DNA of 12,424 bases from a virus. Taxonomy: Duplodnaviria; Heunggongvirae; Uroviricota; Caudoviricetes. The stretch's first letter is position 1, and every line of letters begins with the position of its first letter. The notes under the pieces are model-generated. The model did no database searches. It worked only from the letters and a program-made list of their open reading frames with translations, and was not told the DNA's origin. Location: positions 1 to 12,424 of IMG/VR virus record IMGVR_UViG_2737471831_000003; one strand, 5' to 3'. Of the stretch, positions 4,636 through 12,067 are shown piece by piece. Position numbers and translations under genes: made by a program.

Positions 4636-5187
4636 GTGGGTAAGCATCACTGGAAAGTAGAAAAACAGCCTAAGTGGTACGTGAAAGCTGTCAGAAAAAC
4701 TATCGCAGCGTTGCCGGGGGGTTACGCTGAAGCTGCTGACTGGCTGGATGTAACAGAGAACGCATTATTTAACCGCCTTCGTGCCGATGGCGATCAGATT
4801 TTCCCGCTGGGATGGGCAATGATTTTGCAACGTGCTGGTGGAACTCACTTCATTGCTGACGCTGTGGCGCAGTCTGCAAATGGCGTCTTTGTGTCTCTTC
4901 CTGATATCGAGGATGTGGACAACGCCGATATCAACCAACGCCTGCTGGAGGTCATTGAACAGATCGGCAGTTATTCAAAACAGATTCGTTCAGCAATTGA
5001 AGACGGTGTAGTTGAACCGCATGAGAAGACAGCAATTAACGATGAGCTGTACCTCTCAATTTCGAAGCTGCAGGAGCATGCAGCACTGGTCTACAAAATC
5101 TTTTGCGTTTCAGAAAGTAGTGACGCCCGCGAGTGTGCAGCTCCGGGCGCCGTGGCGTGTCGTGACTGTGGAGAAACTAACGCATGA
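4636..5187 (+). CDS. Hypothetical regulatory protein in the cII position, possibly YdaT-family
   Basis: Strong RBS AAGGAG (4624-4629) 6 nt before in-frame GTG at 4636; alternative ATG at 4603 overlaps the cro stop. The family assignment is from memory of YdaS-YdaT pairs and is tentative. Confidence 0.55.
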
Positions 5188-5522
5188 ACAGTTTAACAAC
5201 ACACTACCGTCGCTCGCAACTGATTGCGCTTCCGGTTCCGGGTGGAAAAGCGAAGGTGGAGTATTGCTATGCAGTGAATGTACCAGGTGACAGGGAAATT
5301 GTAACCCACAGCTTTGCAGAGTGGGCTGTGGGTGATTTCAACCGGCAGAAGGAGACAGTCCTTTGCGACAAGTTAACCGCTGGTTCAAAGATCACTACGG
5401 AGTGCCCGTCAGAGTCATTCGTTGGGAACCGGAAACACAACGGGTTATCTACCTCCGCGAAGGTTATGAGCATGAATGCTTCAGTCCGCTCGAACAGTTT
5501 CGTCGTAAATTCAGGGAAATAG
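5184..5522 (+). CDS. Hypothetical protein (112 aa, ATG-initiated); C-terminal half doubtful
   Basis: ATG at 5184 overlaps the upstream stop (ATGA coupling). The N-terminal ~55 aa look protein-like, but the C-terminal half is Ser/Asn-rich and low-complexity, while an alternative frame over the same DNA looks more protein-like. Confidence 0.3.
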
Positions 5523-5542
5523 AGGTCGGTCATGAGCACTAA
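5363..5542 (+). CDS. Alternative small ORF (59 aa, TTG start), frame-2
   Basis: AAGGAG at 5349-5354 lies 8 nt before TTG at 5363. Translation [59 protein letters not shown] is charged and non-repetitive; stop at 5540-5542 overlaps the start of the replication gene. Confidence 0.35.
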
Positions 5543-6473
5543 ATTAACCGGCTATGTATGGGATGGTTGCGCTGCATCAGGCATGAAGTTATCCAGCGTG
5601 GCAATTATGGCCCGCCTGGCTGATTTCAGTAATGACGAAGGTGTGTGCTGGCCATCAATTGAAACCATTGCCCGTCAGATTGGCGCGGGGATGAGTACCG
5701 TCAGAACGGCTATCGCACGGCTGGAAGCAGAAGGCTGGTTAACGCGTAAGGCGCGTCGCCAGGGTAACCGCAATGCGTCGAATGTTTATCAGCTTAACGT
5801 TGCGAAGCTTCAGGCAGCGGCATTTTCTCAACTGTCAGATTCTGACCCGTCAAAATCTGACGCATCAAAATCTGACCCGTCAAAATTTGATGCGTCGAAA
5901 TCTGGGAAAAAAGCGGGTTTTCACCCGTCAGAATCTGGTGGGGATCCGTCAGTAAAATCAAAACATGATCCGTCAGATAAAAAACCTTCTCGTCCGGACG
6001 CTTCGCAACCGGACACGCAGAAGGCTGAACAGGATTTTTTAACTCGCCATCCTGATGCGGTTGTATTCAGCCCTAAAAAGCGCCAGTGGGGAACGCAGGA
6101 TGATTTGACCTGCGCACAGTGGCTCTGGAAAAAAATCATCGCCCTGTACGAGCAGGCCGCCGAATGTGACGGCGAGGTGGTTCGTCCCAAAGAACCGAAC
6201 TGGACAGCCTGGGCAAACGAAATTCGCCTGATGTGTGTGCAGGATGGTCGTACTCACAAACAAATCTGCGAGATGTACAGCCGCGTCAGCCGCGATCCGT
6301 TCTGGTGCCGTAACGTGCTCAGCCCGTCGAAGCTGCGGGAAAAATGGGATGAGCTTTCCCTGCGCTTATCGCCGTCCGTCAGCACGTACACCGAAAAACG
6401 CGAAGACCCGTACTTCAAAGCCAGTTACGACAACGTGGACTACAGCCAGATCCCGGCAGGATTCAGGGGGTGA
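5532..6473 (+). CDS. Phage replication initiation protein (N-terminal winged-HTH, low-complexity linker, DnaT-like C-terminus)
   Basis: 313 aa; GAGGT 5 nt before the ATG. N-terminal HTH typical of phage replication initiators (SIETIARQIGAGMSTVRTAIARLEAEGWL); central SDPSK-type linker encoded by the iteron array; C-terminus ends ...NWTAWANEIRL...QIPAGFRG, resembling (from memory) the C-terminal domain of primosomal protein DnaT (...IPPGFRG). Confidence 0.8.
   Translation: MSTKLTGYVWDGCAASGMKLSSVAIMARLADFSNDEGVCWPSIETIARQIGAGMSTVRTAIARLEAEGWLTRKARRQGNRNASNVYQLNVAKLQAAAFSQLSDSDPSKSDASKSDPSKFDASKSGKKAGFHPSESGGDPSVKSKHDPSDKKPSRPDASQPDTQKAEQDFLTRHPDAVVFSPKKRQWGTQDDLTCAQWLWKKIIALYEQAAECDGEVVRPKEPNWTAWANEIRLMCVQDGRTHKQICEMYSRVSRDPFWCRNVLSPSKLREKWDELSLRLSPSVSTYTEKREDPYFKASYDNVDYSQIPAGFRG
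5831..5985. repeat. Iteron-like direct repeat array (15-bp period), candidate replication origin
   Basis: Four consecutive 15-bp units at 5842-5901 (CTGACCCGTCAAAAT, CTGACGCATCAAAAT, CTGACCCGTCAAAAT, TTGATGCGTCGAAAT), plus degenerate CCGTCAG-containing copies to about 5980 and an A-rich stretch (5976-5985). Confidence 0.6.
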
Positions 6474-6475
6474 TC

Positions 6476-6964
6476 ATGAGTCTTTTGAATGAAGTTCAGA
6501 AATTCATTGAAGCCCATCCGGGGTGTACTTCCGGAGACATTGCGGATGCTTTTGCAGGTTATTCACGGCAGCGCGTTCTGCAGTCTGCAAGCAAGTTACG
6601 TCAGAGTGGGCGTGTGGCTCACCGTTGTGAAGGAGATACACGCAGACATTTCCCGCGCCTGACTGAGAGAGCGCAGGAGCCGGAACCACAACCAGTTCGT
6701 GAAACCAGACCTGTGCGCAATTTCTATGTCGGCACTAACGATCCCCGGGTGATTTTGTGCCTGACCCGCCAGGCTGAAGAACTGGAGTCAAGGGGCTTAT
6801 ACCGTCGTGCTGCAACCGTGTGGATGGCGGCATTCCGTGAAAGCCACTCCCAGCCAGAACGAAACAATTTTCTGGCGCGTCGTGAGCAGTGCTTACAGAA
6901 AAGCAGCAAGCGCGCTGCATCGGGTGAAGAGTGGTATCTGTCAGGGAATTACGTGGGGGCGTAA
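6476..6964 (+). CDS. PerC-like transcriptional regulator domain protein
   Basis: ATG at 6476 with GGGGG 5 nt upstream (GTG at 6470 also in frame). C-terminal AEELESRGLYRRAATVWMAAF resembles the PerC/Pch motif (A..LE.RGLWRRAA..W), recalled from memory. Confidence 0.55.
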   Translation: MSLLNEVQKFIEAHPGCTSGDIADAFAGYSRQRVLQSASKLRQSGRVAHRCEGDTRRHFPRLTERAQEPEPQPVRETRPVRNFYVGTNDPRVILCLTRQAEELESRGLYRRAATVWMAAFRESHSQPERNNFLARREQCLQKSSKRAASGEEWYLSGNYVGA

Positions 6965-7290
6965 TGACGACGTTAACTCAATGCCAGCAGCAGGTGCTGG
7001 ATATGCTGATTTCTTATCAGAAAGAGCGTGGCTTTCCGCCAACCAATCAGGAGGTGGCAACCATGCTGGGATACCGTTCGGTGAATGCAGCGGTGGAGCA
7101 TCTTCGCGCACTGGAGAAAAAAGGCGTCATCACGATAAAGCGTGGCGTGGCACGGGGGATAACGCTTCATACCGCTGTGAAGGACGACGACAGCGAGGCG
7201 GTCGGGATTATCCGCGCACTGCTTGCCGGTGAGGAAAACGCCAGGCTGCGTGCAGCCCACTGGTTACATGAGAGGGGCCTGAAAGTATGA
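6964..7290 (+). CDS. LexA N-terminal DNA-binding-domain-only protein (no S24 peptidase domain)
   Basis: ATG at 6964 overlaps the upstream stop (TAATG). QQQVLDMLISYQKERGFPPTNQEVATMLGYRSVNAAVEHLRALEKKGVITIKRGVARGITL aligns closely with E. coli LexA residues ~8-70 ([61 protein letters not shown]). The protein ends after ~108 aa with no catalytic Ser/Lys domain. Confidence 0.8.
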   Translation: MTTLTQCQQQVLDMLISYQKERGFPPTNQEVATMLGYRSVNAAVEHLRALEKKGVITIKRGVARGITLHTAVKDDDSEAVGIIRALLAGEENARLRAAHWLHERGLKV

Positions 7291-7676
7291 AGCTGATTCT
7301 GCCTTTTCCGCCCAGCGTGAACACGTACTGGCGACACCCCAACAAAGGGGCGTTTGCTGGTAAGAGCCTGATAAGCGCGGCGGGGCGCAAATTCCAGAGC
7401 GCGGCGTGTGCAGCAATAGTTGAGCAGTTACGTCGTCTGCCAAAACCAACGTCGGCACCTGCTTCAGTGGAGATCGTGTTGTTTCCACCGGATAACCGGA
7501 TCCGCGATCTGGACAACTATAACAAGGCGCTGTTTGACGCCCTGACCCACGCGGGTGTGTGGGAGGACGACAGTCAGGTGAAAAGAATGCTGGTGGAGTG
7601 GGGGCCGGTTATCCCGGAAGGGAAGGTCGAGATCACTATCAGTAAGTACGAGAAAACGGCGGGTGCAGCCGCCTGA
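7287..7676 (+). CDS. rusA: Holliday-junction resolvase RusA
   Basis: 129 aa; LPFPPSVNTYWR and RDLDNYNKALFDALTHAGVWEDDSQV match the RusA motifs ([38 protein letters not shown]). ATG overlaps the upstream stop (ATGA). Confidence 0.92.
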   Translation: MKLILPFPPSVNTYWRHPNKGAFAGKSLISAAGRKFQSAACAAIVEQLRRLPKPTSAPASVEIVLFPPDNRIRDLDNYNKALFDALTHAGVWEDDSQVKRMLVEWGPVIPEGKVEITISKYEKTAGAAA

Positions 7677-7695
7677 TTAAGAGGAGAAACGAAGT

Positions 7696-8493
7696 ATGAA
7701 TAATCTGATGGTCATTGATGGTATTGAAGTTCGTCGTGATGCTTATGGGCGTTACAGCCTGAACGATCTGCACAGGGCTGCCGGTTCTCAGGATAAGCAT
7801 AAGCCTGCATTTTGGCTCCGCAATGAGCAAACCGAACGTTTAATAAGCGAGTTGCAGATTTGCAACTCGGTCAATATAGAGCCAGTTAACGTTATTCGTG
7901 GCGGAAATAACCAGGGGACGTATGTCTGCAAAGAACTGGTGTATGCCTATGCAATGTGGATCAGTCCGTCATTCCATCTGAAGGTGATCCGTACTTTCGA
8001 TATGGTAACCAGCGCACCGGAAAAATTATCCGGGCAGGCTGCTGACAAGATGCAGGCTGGTGTGATTCTGCTGGACTTTATGCGTCGGGAGTTAAACCTG
8101 TCTAACTCATCTGTGCTTGGGGCCTGTCAGAAACTCCAGGAGGCTGTTGGTTTACCGAATCTGGCACCGCGCTATGCCATTGATGCCCCTGCTGATGCAC
8201 ACGATGGCTCAAGTCGCCCGACACTGTCACTGAGTGCACTGCTGAAACAGTATGGTATCCGCCTTACGGCTAATCAGGCATATCACCAGATGGTGAAACT
8301 GGGGATCGTCGAACAGCGCGAACGATACAGCCGTACCGCGATTAATAACATCAAAAAATTCTGGTCGCTGACGGCGAAAGGCTGCATGTTCGGCAAGAAC
8401 ATCACCAGTCCGGCAAATCCGCGTGAGACGCAGCCGCATTTCTTCGAATCCCGATTCCCTGAGCTGTTAAAGCTGCTCGATACCGTTCATTGA
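7696..8493 (+). CDS. KilA-N domain protein
   Basis: 265 aa; GAGGAG RBS at 7681-7686. N-terminal ~100 aa (IDGIEVRRDAYGRYSLNDLHRAAG...PAFWLRNEQT...YVCKELVYAYAMWISPSFHLKVIRTF) fit the KilA-N DNA-binding domain pattern. Confidence 0.8.
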   Translation: MNNLMVIDGIEVRRDAYGRYSLNDLHRAAGSQDKHKPAFWLRNEQTERLISELQICNSVNIEPVNVIRGGNNQGTYVCKELVYAYAMWISPSFHLKVIRTFDMVTSAPEKLSGQAADKMQAGVILLDFMRRELNLSNSSVLGACQKLQEAVGLPNLAPRYAIDAPADAHDGSSRPTLSLSALLKQYGIRLTANQAYHQMVKLGIVEQRERYSRTAINNIKKFWSLTAKGCMFGKNITSPANPRETQPHFFESRFPELLKLLDTVH

Positions 8494-8494
8494 G

Positions 8495-9490
8495 GTGACC
8501 GTGAGAGCGCTACTGACCCCTGAGATTGCCCCGCGTATGGGGATCGTATTGTTCAGACCCGGTTCAGAGCTGATGCCCCTGTTTATGCAGGGGCGTGTCC
8601 TGCTGGAGCCTGAGCCGGAGCGTTATTCATCTTTCGCCAGTGGTGCCGTTCCGGCGGCATCACAACCGCTGGCGGATGATCCTGCCGTTCGGGCCGTGTT
8701 CCGCAATGAGGCAGTGATCCGTCGTGCTGGTGGCGTGGAATGTCTTGAAAGCTGGTTACTTCGTGAAAAAGGCTGCCAGTGGCCTCATTCCGACTGGCAC
8801 AGCGAGAACATGACAACAATGCGACACGCTCCGGGCGCAATCCGTCTGTGCTGGCACTGCGATAACCAGCTGCGCGATCAGTTCACGGAACGGCTGGAAT
8901 CAATGGCAACGGATAACTGTGCCCGCTGGGTGTTGTCTGTTGTGCGTCGGGATCTCGGTTTTGATGATAGTCACGTTGTGACAATGCCGGAACTGTGCTG
9001 GTGGCTGATTCGTAATGACCTGGCGGATGCCTTACCGGAAAGTGCAGCCCGTAAGGCACTGAGATTACCGAGGCCTGTTGTGCCGTCTGTCACCCGGGAA
9101 AGTGACCTTGTGCCTTCGGTTCCTGCCACCAGCATCATCCAGGATAAAGCGAAAAAGGTGCTGGCGCTGAAAGTGGATCCGGAGTCGCCGGAGTCTTTTA
9201 TGTTACGCCCAAAACGTCGCCGCTGGGTTAATGAAAAGTACACGCGCTGGGTTAAGACACAGCCGTGTGCATGTTGTGGAAAGCCTGCTGATGATCCCCA
9301 CCACCTGATAGGTCACGGTCAGGGTGGAATGGGAACAAAAGCGCATGACCTCTTTGTGTTGCCTTTGTGCAGAAAGCATCACGACGAGCTGCATGCGGAT
9401 ACCGTGGCATTTGAAGAGAAGTATGGCTCCCAGCTGGAGCTGATATTTCGTTTTATCGATCGTGCGCTGGCAATTGGCGTGCTGGCCTGA
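8495..9490 (+). CDS. DUF968-like phage protein with C-terminal Cys/His-rich (HNH-like) motif
   Basis: 331 aa; likely start GTG at 8501 (GAGG 5 nt upstream) rather than 8495. C-terminal CACCGKPADDPHHLIGHGQGG...HDLFVLPLCRKHHDELH is a zinc-binding/HNH-like signature; the position after rusA/KilA-N matches DUF968 genes in Qin-type prophages (from memory). Confidence 0.65.
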   Translation: MTVRALLTPEIAPRMGIVLFRPGSELMPLFMQGRVLLEPEPERYSSFASGAVPAASQPLADDPAVRAVFRNEAVIRRAGGVECLESWLLREKGCQWPHSDWHSENMTTMRHAPGAIRLCWHCDNQLRDQFTERLESMATDNCARWVLSVVRRDLGFDDSHVVTMPELCWWLIRNDLADALPESAARKALRLPRPVVPSVTRESDLVPSVPATSIIQDKAKKVLALKVDPESPESFMLRPKRRRWVNEKYTRWVKTQPCACCGKPADDPHHLIGHGQGGMGTKAHDLFVLPLCRKHHDELHADTVAFEEKYGSQLELIFRFIDRALAIGVLA

Positions 9491-9507
9491 TTTTGTGGAG
9501 AAAGTTG

Positions 9508-9855
9508 ATGCGTGATATGTATGAAGTATTGGACCGCTGGGGAGCATGGGCTGCAGCAGATAACAGTGGCGTGGACTGGCAGCCGATAGCTGCAGGCTTC
9601 AAGGGGCTTTTACCTCATGGCAAAAAGTCCCGGATTCAGTGTGATGATGACGAAGGCATTATGATAGACAGTTGTGTGGCTCGGTTGAGAAAGTATAAAC
9701 CAGAGGAATATGAGCTAATCATAGCTCACTTTGTCATTGGTATCTCATTACGCACTATTGCCAAGAAGAGAAGATGTTCAGATGGCACAGTTAGGAAAAA
9801 ATTGCAGACTGCCTTGGGGTTTGTTGAAGGATGTATTTGTTTGATTGAGTTCTAA
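9508..9855 (+). CDS. Q: Late-gene antiterminator Q (phage 82/QuuD-like family)
   Basis: ATG at 9508 with GGAG 7 nt upstream (an upstream TTG at 9493 is also in frame). VLDRWGAWAA...DWQPIAAGFKGLL...SRIQCDDDEGIM resembles E. coli QuuD as recalled; Cys pairs consistent with a Q zinc finger; last early-right gene before the lysis cassette. Confidence 0.75.
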   Translation: MRDMYEVLDRWGAWAAADNSGVDWQPIAAGFKGLLPHGKKSRIQCDDDEGIMIDSCVARLRKYKPEEYELIIAHFVIGISLRTIAKKRRCSDGTVRKKLQTALGFVEGCICLIEF

Positions 9856-9883
9856 AAAGAATGAGGCGTAAGCCTCATTCTTT
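9856..9883. terminator. Bidirectional intrinsic terminator between Q and the convergent membrane-protein gene
   Basis: Perfect 12-bp stem (9856-9867 AAAGAATGAGGC / 9872-9883 GCCTCATTCTTT) with GTAA loop, A-run on one side and T-run on the other. The minus-strand gene's stop codon (9875-9877) lies in the stem. Confidence 0.75.
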
Positions 9884-10444
9884 ATCTTTAATTATAAGTT
9901 TCGATTTTTCATCATGCATTTTGTCTATCATAAAATACATACCTAATGCCGTTGTGTATATAATGTTGCATATGGTACTTAAATAAATAAACAAAAGTAA
10001 TGATTTCACTAGTGGATATGATGAAAGGTGTAATTCCTTGATGCTTGCACTGGTTAGTTGAAGTGCTCCTCCAACGAAATACAGCGCGATGCTCATAAAC
10101 GCTAAATAACCAAATAGATAAGTGAGGAATTTACGCCTTGTAAGTTTTTTACCTTTTAATACCGGAGGTATGCCATGCATAACTTCATCCATACCATCCT
10201 TACTGAAGGTTGCAACTGCAGCCATAGATGCAATGTAAAAACCAGATAGTATTTGAAGTATCCCGTTTACTAAAGACACAAGACTATCCTTCCCGAGAAG
10301 TGAGATGGTTTTCGGTAAGTAATAGATGGATAAAGTAATAATTGCAGCAGTGAAAATGGGTAAAACCCAGTCAAAAAATCGCTTCTCAGGATGCTTTATG
10401 CGTAGGTAGTCTATAGGTGTAAAAACCTTAGATAAAACATACAT
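9875..10444 (-). CDS. Small integral membrane protein, 4 predicted TM helices (189 aa)
   Basis: Start ATG at 10444 with AGGAGG 5 nt upstream (the longer ORF to 10537 would overlap the upstream gene). Four hydrophobic segments: FFDWVLPIFTAAIITLSIYYL, LVSLVNGILQILSGFYIASMAAVATF, FLTYLFGYLAFMSIALYFVGGAL, LVKSLLLFIYLSTICNIIYTTALGMYFMI. AT-rich. Confidence 0.75.
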   Translation of the reverse strand: MYVLSKVFTPIDYLRIKHPEKRFFDWVLPIFTAAIITLSIYYLPKTISLLGKDSLVSLVNGILQILSGFYIASMAAVATFSKDGMDEVMHGIPPVLKGKKLTRRKFLTYLFGYLAFMSIALYFVGGALQLTSASIKELHLSSYPLVKSLLLFIYLSTICNIIYTTALGMYFMIDKMHDEKSKLIIKDKE

Positions 10445-10476
10445 ATATGCCTCCTTTTGACAGGTTTTCCATGCCT

Positions 10477-11412
10477 TCACTTTAACATAAAGTTTTGCAT
10501 TTTTGCGAGAAGTTCTTCGTGAAATGCTGTTTGGCAAACGGCAATTGTTGATGCCAACACTGCTTTTTCACGTTGTGCCAATTGTGCTGTTGCGAGTTCC
10601 TGTAAGCTCATTTCTTTTCCGATGGAAACAAGATCTGATGAAACGCGTTTATTTTTGTCTTTATAAGAAATTCTTAACATTGTATACTTTCTACCACGAA
10701 GTTTGTCATATGCAGACTTAATCGCCTTAATTGCACCCTCTCCGCGACGTATTTTTGTTGATAGCTTTAGTGTTTCTTCTTCAACCATTACTGTGCCATC
10801 ATCATCTAAAGAGTTATCTTTAAAGCGACGAGTAGCAGTAAGTCCACATAAATAACCAGTGGATAGAGATTGCTCAAGTGTTGTTGCAGCCAAAAAATCA
10901 ATGTCGAAAATAGGTCTGCACTTAAGTTCTTTTTTCCCTCCTGAACGGATAAAGGAAAAATTATTTTCTCGCAGGAAATAAGTTAAAGCTTGGGCTAATA
11001 AACCTCTGGTAATGCCCGGAACTTCTTCTAAAATTGCCTCATAACAATCTTGGAATGATGAGTCGCTCGGTCTTTTTTTGATAAGCACATGAGCAGAGTA
11101 CCCCATACCTTCATCATTTTGCTTTTTCTCAATTCTGGTTTCACCAGTTTTTATGTTGGAAAAGGCGGGATCAGAAGCATCTTTATTTATATATTGAAAA
11201 AGCAATTTCAGGTAATTTTCATCGTCTTTTATGGATAGCAATCTTATGACAGAACGTCCTTTGTTTAATTCGTAAACAGCTTCTCCTTTGTTATAGCGAT
11301 TTTTTAAAACAGGAATACAGTTTACTAAAGGCATGTCAGGTGCGTCATTAGGATACTTCTTTAAAGTAACCTGGCATTTGATCATGAAACGTTCATTATC
11401 TCCCAAGAGCAT
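10477..11412 (-). CDS. Hypothetical soluble protein (311 aa) with a possible Pol-beta-type nucleotidyltransferase signature
   Basis: ATG at 11412 with AAGGA 6 nt upstream; AT-rich. IRSGGKKELKCRPIFDIDFL (residues ~156-175) fits the hG[GS]-x9-13-DhDh pattern; an acidic cluster SLDDDG lies ~30 residues downstream. No family recognised with confidence. Confidence 0.7.
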   Translation of the reverse strand: MLLGDNERFMIKCQVTLKKYPNDAPDMPLVNCIPVLKNRYNKGEAVYELNKGRSVIRLLSIKDDENYLKLLFQYINKDASDPAFSNIKTGETRIEKKQNDEGMGYSAHVLIKKRPSDSSFQDCYEAILEEVPGITRGLLAQALTYFLRENNFSFIRSGGKKELKCRPIFDIDFLAATTLEQSLSTGYLCGLTATRRFKDNSLDDDGTVMVEEETLKLSTKIRRGEGAIKAIKSAYDKLRGRKYTMLRISYKDKNKRVSSDLVSIGKEMSLQELATAQLAQREKAVLASTIAVCQTAFHEELLAKMQNFMLK

Positions 11413-11472
11413 ATCTGTTCCTTATACGAGCACTAATACTGATTGCTGTTTTTAGTTCAGCAGAACCAAAGG

Positions 11473-11501
11473 TTAACTGATTGTGCTTGATAGTATATAT
11501 T
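11473..11501 (+). promoter_or_regulatory. Putative late promoter (pR'-like)
   Basis: TTAACT (11473-11478), 17-bp spacer, TATATT (11496-11501), in an AT-rich region about 240 bp upstream of the holin and about 70 bp upstream of a plus-strand terminator hairpin. Sequence-only prediction. Confidence 0.3.
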
Positions 11502-11566
11502 TTTCACTAACGCGTACGCAAAAAGTATTGTATCGTGTTAAGAGTGGTTACTTCGCCACACAACTT

Positions 11567-11596
11567 AAACCCGCCGCTGAGCGGGTTTTGTCGTTT
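11567..11596 (+). terminator. Putative tR'-like intrinsic terminator upstream of the lysis genes
   Basis: 8-bp stem (11567-11574 AAACCCGC / 11581-11588 GCGGGTTT) with 6-nt loop CGCTGA, followed by TGTCGTTTCT. Confidence 0.5.
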
Positions 11597-11740: not shown

Positions 11741-12067
11741 ATGCCTCATAACCCAAATACCTGGCTGGAGTTGGTCCAGAGCTGGTGGCGTGGAGACACA
11801 CCGCTGGGCGCAGTGATTATGTCGATTGTTATGGCTGGTTTACGTATTGCCTATTTTGGCGGTGGTGGCGGCTGGAAGCGAAAAACACTCGAAATTCTAC
11901 TCTGTGGCGCTCTGACGCTGACTTTTGCATCCGCTCTTGAGTATGTCGGATGGCCTAAATCACTATCTGTTGCCATTGGTGGTGGGGTGGGGCTGATCGG
12001 TGTCGATGCTATTCGTGGGGCTGCAATGAGAGTAATCGGTAACAAGTTTGGTGGCTCTAAGGAGTAA
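11741..12067 (+). CDS. S: Holin, lambda S-like (class I)
   Basis: 108 aa with three hydrophobic segments and a charged C-terminus, similar in size and hydropathy to lambda S; stop 3 nt before the endolysin start. Confidence 0.8.
   Translation: MPHNPNTWLELVQSWWRGDTPLGAVIMSIVMAGLRIAYFGGGGGWKRKTLEILLCGALTLTFASALEYVGWPKSLSVAIGGGVGLIGVDAIRGAAMRVIGNKFGGSKE

Follow-up and report, generated by a model that had tools for sequence, protein, structure and literature searches.

Positions 9875 to 11412 of the window, the whole 12,424-nt stretch of viral DNA analyzed here, hold a two-gene cassette that is very likely a RexAB-type phage-exclusion (abortive-infection) module of the PDC-M53/RexABpp family, found in an unusual position. 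The cassette is a distant relative of lambda RexA/RexB, and this link is given by fold and architecture, without detectable sequence similarity. The assignment is based on the homology of its two products to RexApp and RexBpp of P. putida, the RexA-like fold of the soluble protein, the four-transmembrane (4-TM) topology of its partner, the obligate A-B pairing of the genes and the rexAB position that the pair occupies elsewhere.

Organization of the cassette and the Q-holin slot

The analysis confirmed the AT-rich pair of minus-strand genes described in a sequence-only reading of this DNA. The rexA-like gene (PDC-M53A family; 10477..11412, minus strand), with an ATG start and a TGA stop, encodes a protein of 311 amino acids (A) and is preceded by the ribosome-binding site AAGGA (11419..11423, minus strand). 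The rexB-like gene (PDC-M53B family; 9875..10444, minus strand) encodes a protein of 189 amino acids (B) and is separated from the first by a 32-nt spacer (10445..10476, minus strand), inside which its own ribosome-binding site, AAGGAG, is located (10456-10451, minus strand), a layout that implies co-transcription of the two genes. Automatic ORF calling starts B further upstream, at a TTG at 10537; the ATG at 10444 was taken as the start because a ribosome-binding site precedes it and because the resulting protein is the same as RefSeq WP_198406512.1. The GC content of the cassette is 0.35-0.37 (0.347 for B and 0.368 for A), compared to 0.53 in the flanks (0.535 for positions 5000-9492 and 0.517 for the holin).

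The end of the cassette coincides with a perfect hairpin (9856..9883), with a 12-bp stem, a 4-nt loop and U5 on the minus strand, for which folding gave a free energy of -17.4 kcal/mol (z = -7.3) that was equalled by 0 of 200 shuffled sequences. The Q gene stops at 9855 and B at 9875, converging on the hairpin, which can thus terminate both and is likely a bidirectional intrinsic terminator. At the opposite end, the non-coding region upstream of A (11413..11521, minus strand) presumably contains the cassette's own promoter. No minus-strand site passed the 9-of-12 threshold of the promoter scan, and a relaxed scan returned a single, weak candidate with 8 of 12 matches, composed of TTGCGT (11521-11516) and TATACT (11497-11492) with an 18-nt spacer. 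A tR'-like intrinsic terminator was found on the plus strand (11567..11588), in a conserved block that is found ahead of the holin whichever cargo is present, while the late promoter pR', sought at the right junction of the slot, could not be placed. Rfam and tRNA scans of the whole window gave no match.

The cassette is flanked by an antiterminator Q gene (9493-9855; PF06530, E 9e-46) and a lambda-type holin gene (11741-12067; PF05106, E 6e-25), in agreement with its initial placement in the cargo site between these genes. Homology to the collinear E. coli prophages L002 and L003 ends at about 9825-9830 and restarts at 11506-11508, and blastn boundaries together with junction alignment delimited an exchangeable module of 1.7 kb (9831..11507). 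The cargo of this slot is Kiwa in L002 and another two-gene cassette in L003, and among collinear E. coli prophages it comprises Kiwa, a KAP NTPase, a TIGR04255 protein or a DNA methyltransferase; in phage SfII, a divergent M53 pair occupies the same antisense slot. The flanks of the slot are matched in ~1,300 E. coli genomes when the Q-holin region is the query and in ~4,500 with a wider query. These results support the view that the cassette is an autonomous, horizontally acquired element in a cargo slot.

The presence of Kiwa in exactly the same slot and orientation of collinear prophages, with a ~180-aa 4-TM protein and a ~300-aa soluble protein, raises the possibility of a Kiwa-like system, in which a membrane sensor and a DNA-binding effector would block phage DNA replication or late transcription instead of damaging the membrane as an Abi system. 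However, the gene order is reversed, since the TM gene comes first in Kiwa and second in the family of the cassette (30 of 30 loci), and neither DUF4868 or any other Pfam family nor the PADLOC Kiwa models matched the cassette proteins. BLASTP against KwaA and KwaB was negative, and hhalign gave 0.1% for the A-family alignment (A3) with a KwaB-like protein and 1.4% for the B-family alignment (A2) with KwaA. A Kiwa-like mode of action is therefore highly improbable.

Fold, conservation and topology of the two proteins

[quoted passage not shown] It is predicted to be a DNA-binding sensor or activator, and its pI together with the conserved R8, R93 and R166 is compatible with a predicted function in dimerization and non-specific DNA binding. 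The PADLOC PDC-M53A model PDLC04696 matches A with an E value of 1e-17, and four more M53A models also match. In the alignment of 79 sequences (A3), E129 is the sole invariant residue, while R8, L71, P82, R93, E101, H108 and D203 are conserved in at least 90% of the sequences. Neither protein was matched in Pfam or NCBIfam searches, nor were the 79 family members matched in Pfam, and neither phmmer nor profile hmmsearch, run on the full set of PDB chain sequences, returned a match for A or B.

A different role for A had been read from its sequence: IRSGGKKELKCRPIFDIDF was taken for a Pol-beta-type nucleotidyltransferase signature (GG-x10-DID), followed by the acidic cluster SLDDDG, and D170A/D172A mutants were proposed. 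Both stretches do occur in A, and Hailong shows the same architecture of an enzyme and a TM channel (PMC13434031). On this reading the pair would signal through a nucleotidyltransferase or act as a nucleotide guard, in the manner of Hailong, CBASS, Pycsar or a minimal NTase, and a nucleotide or oligonucleotide made by A would gate the 4-TM effector. Neither stretch, however, is a conserved feature. In 22 homologues of A, the positions of G158/G159 are occupied by DG, NQ, NN, EN, DS or ET, that of D170 by E/Q/N/S/K/I and that of D172 by D/E/S, and none of these four residues falls in the columns of A3 conserved at 90% or more. No Pol-beta-type nucleotidyltransferase occurs among the best 60 fold matches listed for A, a family HMM match is lacking, and PDC-M53 is the only PADLOC model matching either protein. 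The D170A/D172A mutants would hit non-conserved residues, and a nucleotide-signalling system of this kind is barely credible. As to the other analogies proposed initially, that to RexAB is the appropriate one, that to Kiwa is excluded by the profile comparisons, and PADLOC models and PDB sequence searches gave no support for those to Hailong, CBASS and Pycsar.

The 4-TM topology proposed for B was borne out by two approaches. Hydropathy analysis revealed four hydrophobic segments, at about residues 25-44, 56-79, 106-128 and 147-172, in agreement with the helices of the AF2 model (19-42, 55-79, 103-130 and 144-177; pLDDT 83.8), and the distribution of K and R residues predicts that both termini are inside according to the positive-inside rule. 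The PADLOC PDC-M53B model PDLC04699 matches residues 3-178 of the 189 of B (E 1.6e-39). B is predicted to be an inner-membrane, membrane-damaging effector.

Homology to RexABpp and genomic context of the pair

The P. putida genes PP_5643 and PP_5644 were recovered from an IMG/VR provirus contig with the published PP_5644 primer sequence, and the termini of the recovered ORFs agree with the published primers. RexApp (PP_5643) matches the PDC-M53A model PDLC04694 (E 8.4e-157) and RexBpp (PP_5644) matches PDC-M53B (E 2.8e-72). Judged by sequence and profile comparison, A and B of the window are homologous to these two proteins: BLASTP aligned B with RexBpp at 30% identity over 193 columns (E 3e-20) and A with RexApp at ~22% identity (E 9e-9), and hhalign gave 99.35% for the B-family alignment with RexBpp and 99.45% over 280 columns for the A-family alignment with RexApp. 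With only ~22% identity between A and RexApp, the two systems may respond to different triggers and differ in specificity.

In P. putida, both genes of RexABpp, carried by prophage P1, are required for phage defence (Rosendahl et al., Sci Rep 2026, PMC12894663). According to the same work (PMC12894663), deletion of the pair sensitized cells to phages, RexApp binds DNA, and its overexpression caused RexBpp-dependent growth arrest and PI/SYTOX uptake, while a two-hybrid assay gave no interaction between RexA and RexB and DiSC3(5) indicated no depolarization, so that an "ion channel" step is not established even for the homologue. Proposed at first as a defence or abortive-infection candidate, the cassette is thus supported in that role by a family with one validated member. 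The PDC systems were collected as candidates by "guilt-by-embedding" in BREX, DISARM and type I RM loci (Payne et al., bioRxiv 10.1101/2024.01.29.577857); PDC-M53 is a PADLOC catalogue entry of the family, with no attached fold or mechanism, whose HMMs match both window proteins. To call the pair an "undescribed variant" was therefore too strong, since it is catalogued as PDC-M53 and one member was characterized in January 2026. Among the papers searched, PDC-M53 was found by name only in a Salmonella genomics survey, and PADLOC and PDC go unmentioned in the RexABpp paper (PMC12894663).

Co-occurrence of the two genes elsewhere had been set as a test beforehand. An A-family gene was located directly upstream of the B-family gene, on the same strand and abutting or overlapping it, in 30 of the 30 testable loci, which span Gamma-, Alpha- and Deltaproteobacteria and Trueperaceae; the pair was also present in L005, L007, L009 and L012. 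On another reading, A is a phage RdgC-type recombination modulator, inhibiting RecA-mediated exchange, and B a moron with no relation to it, for instance one for superinfection exclusion. This is very unlikely, given that no RdgC Pfam match was obtained and that defence by the homologous pair of P. putida depends on both genes; moreover, such strict co-occurrence of A and B argues for one functional unit.

The surroundings of the pair bear on whether it mainly serves the prophage, by tuning the lysogeny-lysis switch or induction or as an addiction module, with exclusion as a by-product. In Pasteurella and Haemophilus lambdoid prophages, a divergent cro-like gene is followed by cI(S24)-A-B on the other strand, and the pair there occupies lambda's rexAB position, directly after cI. 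The P. putida pair is likewise associated with cI, lying downstream of a Cro/CI-type repressor gene with PP_3897 and PP_3898 between. In addition, lambda RexA modulates the CI-Cro switch with no need of RexB (Adams et al., PMC11077077), and toxicity was seen in E. coli with constructs that express the two P. putida genes together (PMC12894663). In the window, by contrast, ~5.6 kb separate the cassette from the repressor gene, the cassette possesses a terminator and an upstream region of its own, and Kiwa can take its place. Of the 31 loci surveyed, most are solo islets amid housekeeping genes or genes of mobile elements and lack a prophage repressor in the vicinity; known defence genes were not strongly enriched around the pair in the neighbour survey. 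The selection of the family by PADLOC for copies embedded in BREX, DISARM and type I RM loci and the phage sensitivity of the P. putida deletion also stand against a service to the prophage as the main role, which is unlikely.

Proposed mechanism and comparison with known systems

For the preferred reading, a RexAB-type exclusion module, DNA binding, effector toxicity, membrane permeabilization and defence would be transferred by analogy from the P. putida homologue and lambda. We infer that the E. coli cassette acts like these systems, and its trigger and promoter position are likewise proposals. In the lysogen, A and B would be transcribed together from their own promoter, in the direction opposite to the early-right and late operons, with the bidirectional hairpin as insulator. 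A would form a RexA/RdgC-like dimeric clamp, non-specific on DNA, and sense a product of the infecting phage, for example one of its proteins or a DNA-protein intermediate of replication or recombination. Activated by A, the four-helix B would oligomerize and compromise the inner membrane, leading to growth arrest, and the superinfecting phage would not complete its cycle.

In more tentative terms, PDC-M53 is possibly the main, widespread Rex-type lineage, with A intermediate between RdgC and lambda RexA, lambda RexAB a shortened offshoot and the window system uncoupled from cI/Cro. At 50% identity the family forms at least 751 clusters, in Proteobacteria and other groups, compared to the "five RexAB-like systems" that the literature counts, which suggests that Rex-type systems are far commoner than the handful described. 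A Rex-type system off the cI/Cro switch, in a slot between Q and the late promoter that swaps membrane-linked defence cassettes (Kiwa, RexAB-type, KAP NTPase and others), would argue that exclusion, and not switch tuning, is ancestral; its location apart from the immunity region offers a natural test of the question of Adams et al., whether Rex-type proteins are primarily defence proteins or modulators of the lysogeny switch. With the assignment to the RexAB type, two "hypothetical proteins" of E. coli, Salmonella, Enterobacter, Yersinia and Shigella phage SfII gain a mechanism-level identity, and an untested catalogue entry, PDC-M53, is tied to the validated RexABpp and, via structure, to lambda RexAB, a connection that was not found made in the literature searched. 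In this prophage family, the Q-holin slot is also a place for seeking more defence cargo.

Compared to RexABpp, the window cassette belongs to another host and would face other target phages, and it has a terminator of its own and runs antisense in the Q-holin interval, whereas the P. putida pair follows a repressor gene. The relation to lambda is more distant. The PADLOC RexA and RexB HMMs matched the lambda proteins (9e-110 and 8.6e-61, respectively) and gave no match to A or B at E <= 1, and BLASTP against lambda RexA and RexB was negative. Comparison by hhalign with lambda RexA and RexB gave 0.4% and 0.2%, a weaker test, given its single-sequence templates, than the HHpred search that returned 98% for RexApp (PMC12894663). 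The "orphan RexA" of Shewanella khirikhana (Adams et al.) was tried as a bridge and rejected: the B-family locus found there, which may or may not be STH12_00053, is an ordinary M53 A-B pair that showed no BLAST similarity to lambda RexA.

A and B (311 and 189 aa) are larger than lambda RexA and RexB (279 and 144 aa). Lambda rexAB adjoins cI and is co-transcribed with it from PRM, whereas the window pair is outside the immunity region and not co-transcribed with cI. Dimerization, non-specific DNA binding and activation of RexB are documented for lambda RexA and for RexApp (PMC11077077, PMC12894663), and lambda RexB and B are both small inner-membrane proteins with four TM helices. E. coli RdgC, unlike A, is a chromosomal modulator of recombination that stands alone, without a partner in the membrane, and it has no sequence or Pfam relation to A. 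By published description, the cassette also resembles the actinobacteriophage pairs Sbash gp30/31, CarolAnn gp44/43 and Butters gp30/31, which are soluble and membrane exclusion pairs of temperate phages of other hosts; these systems are counted as Rex-like (PMC11077077, PMC12894663), and in phage Butters the soluble and the membrane protein have reversed roles (PMC12894663).

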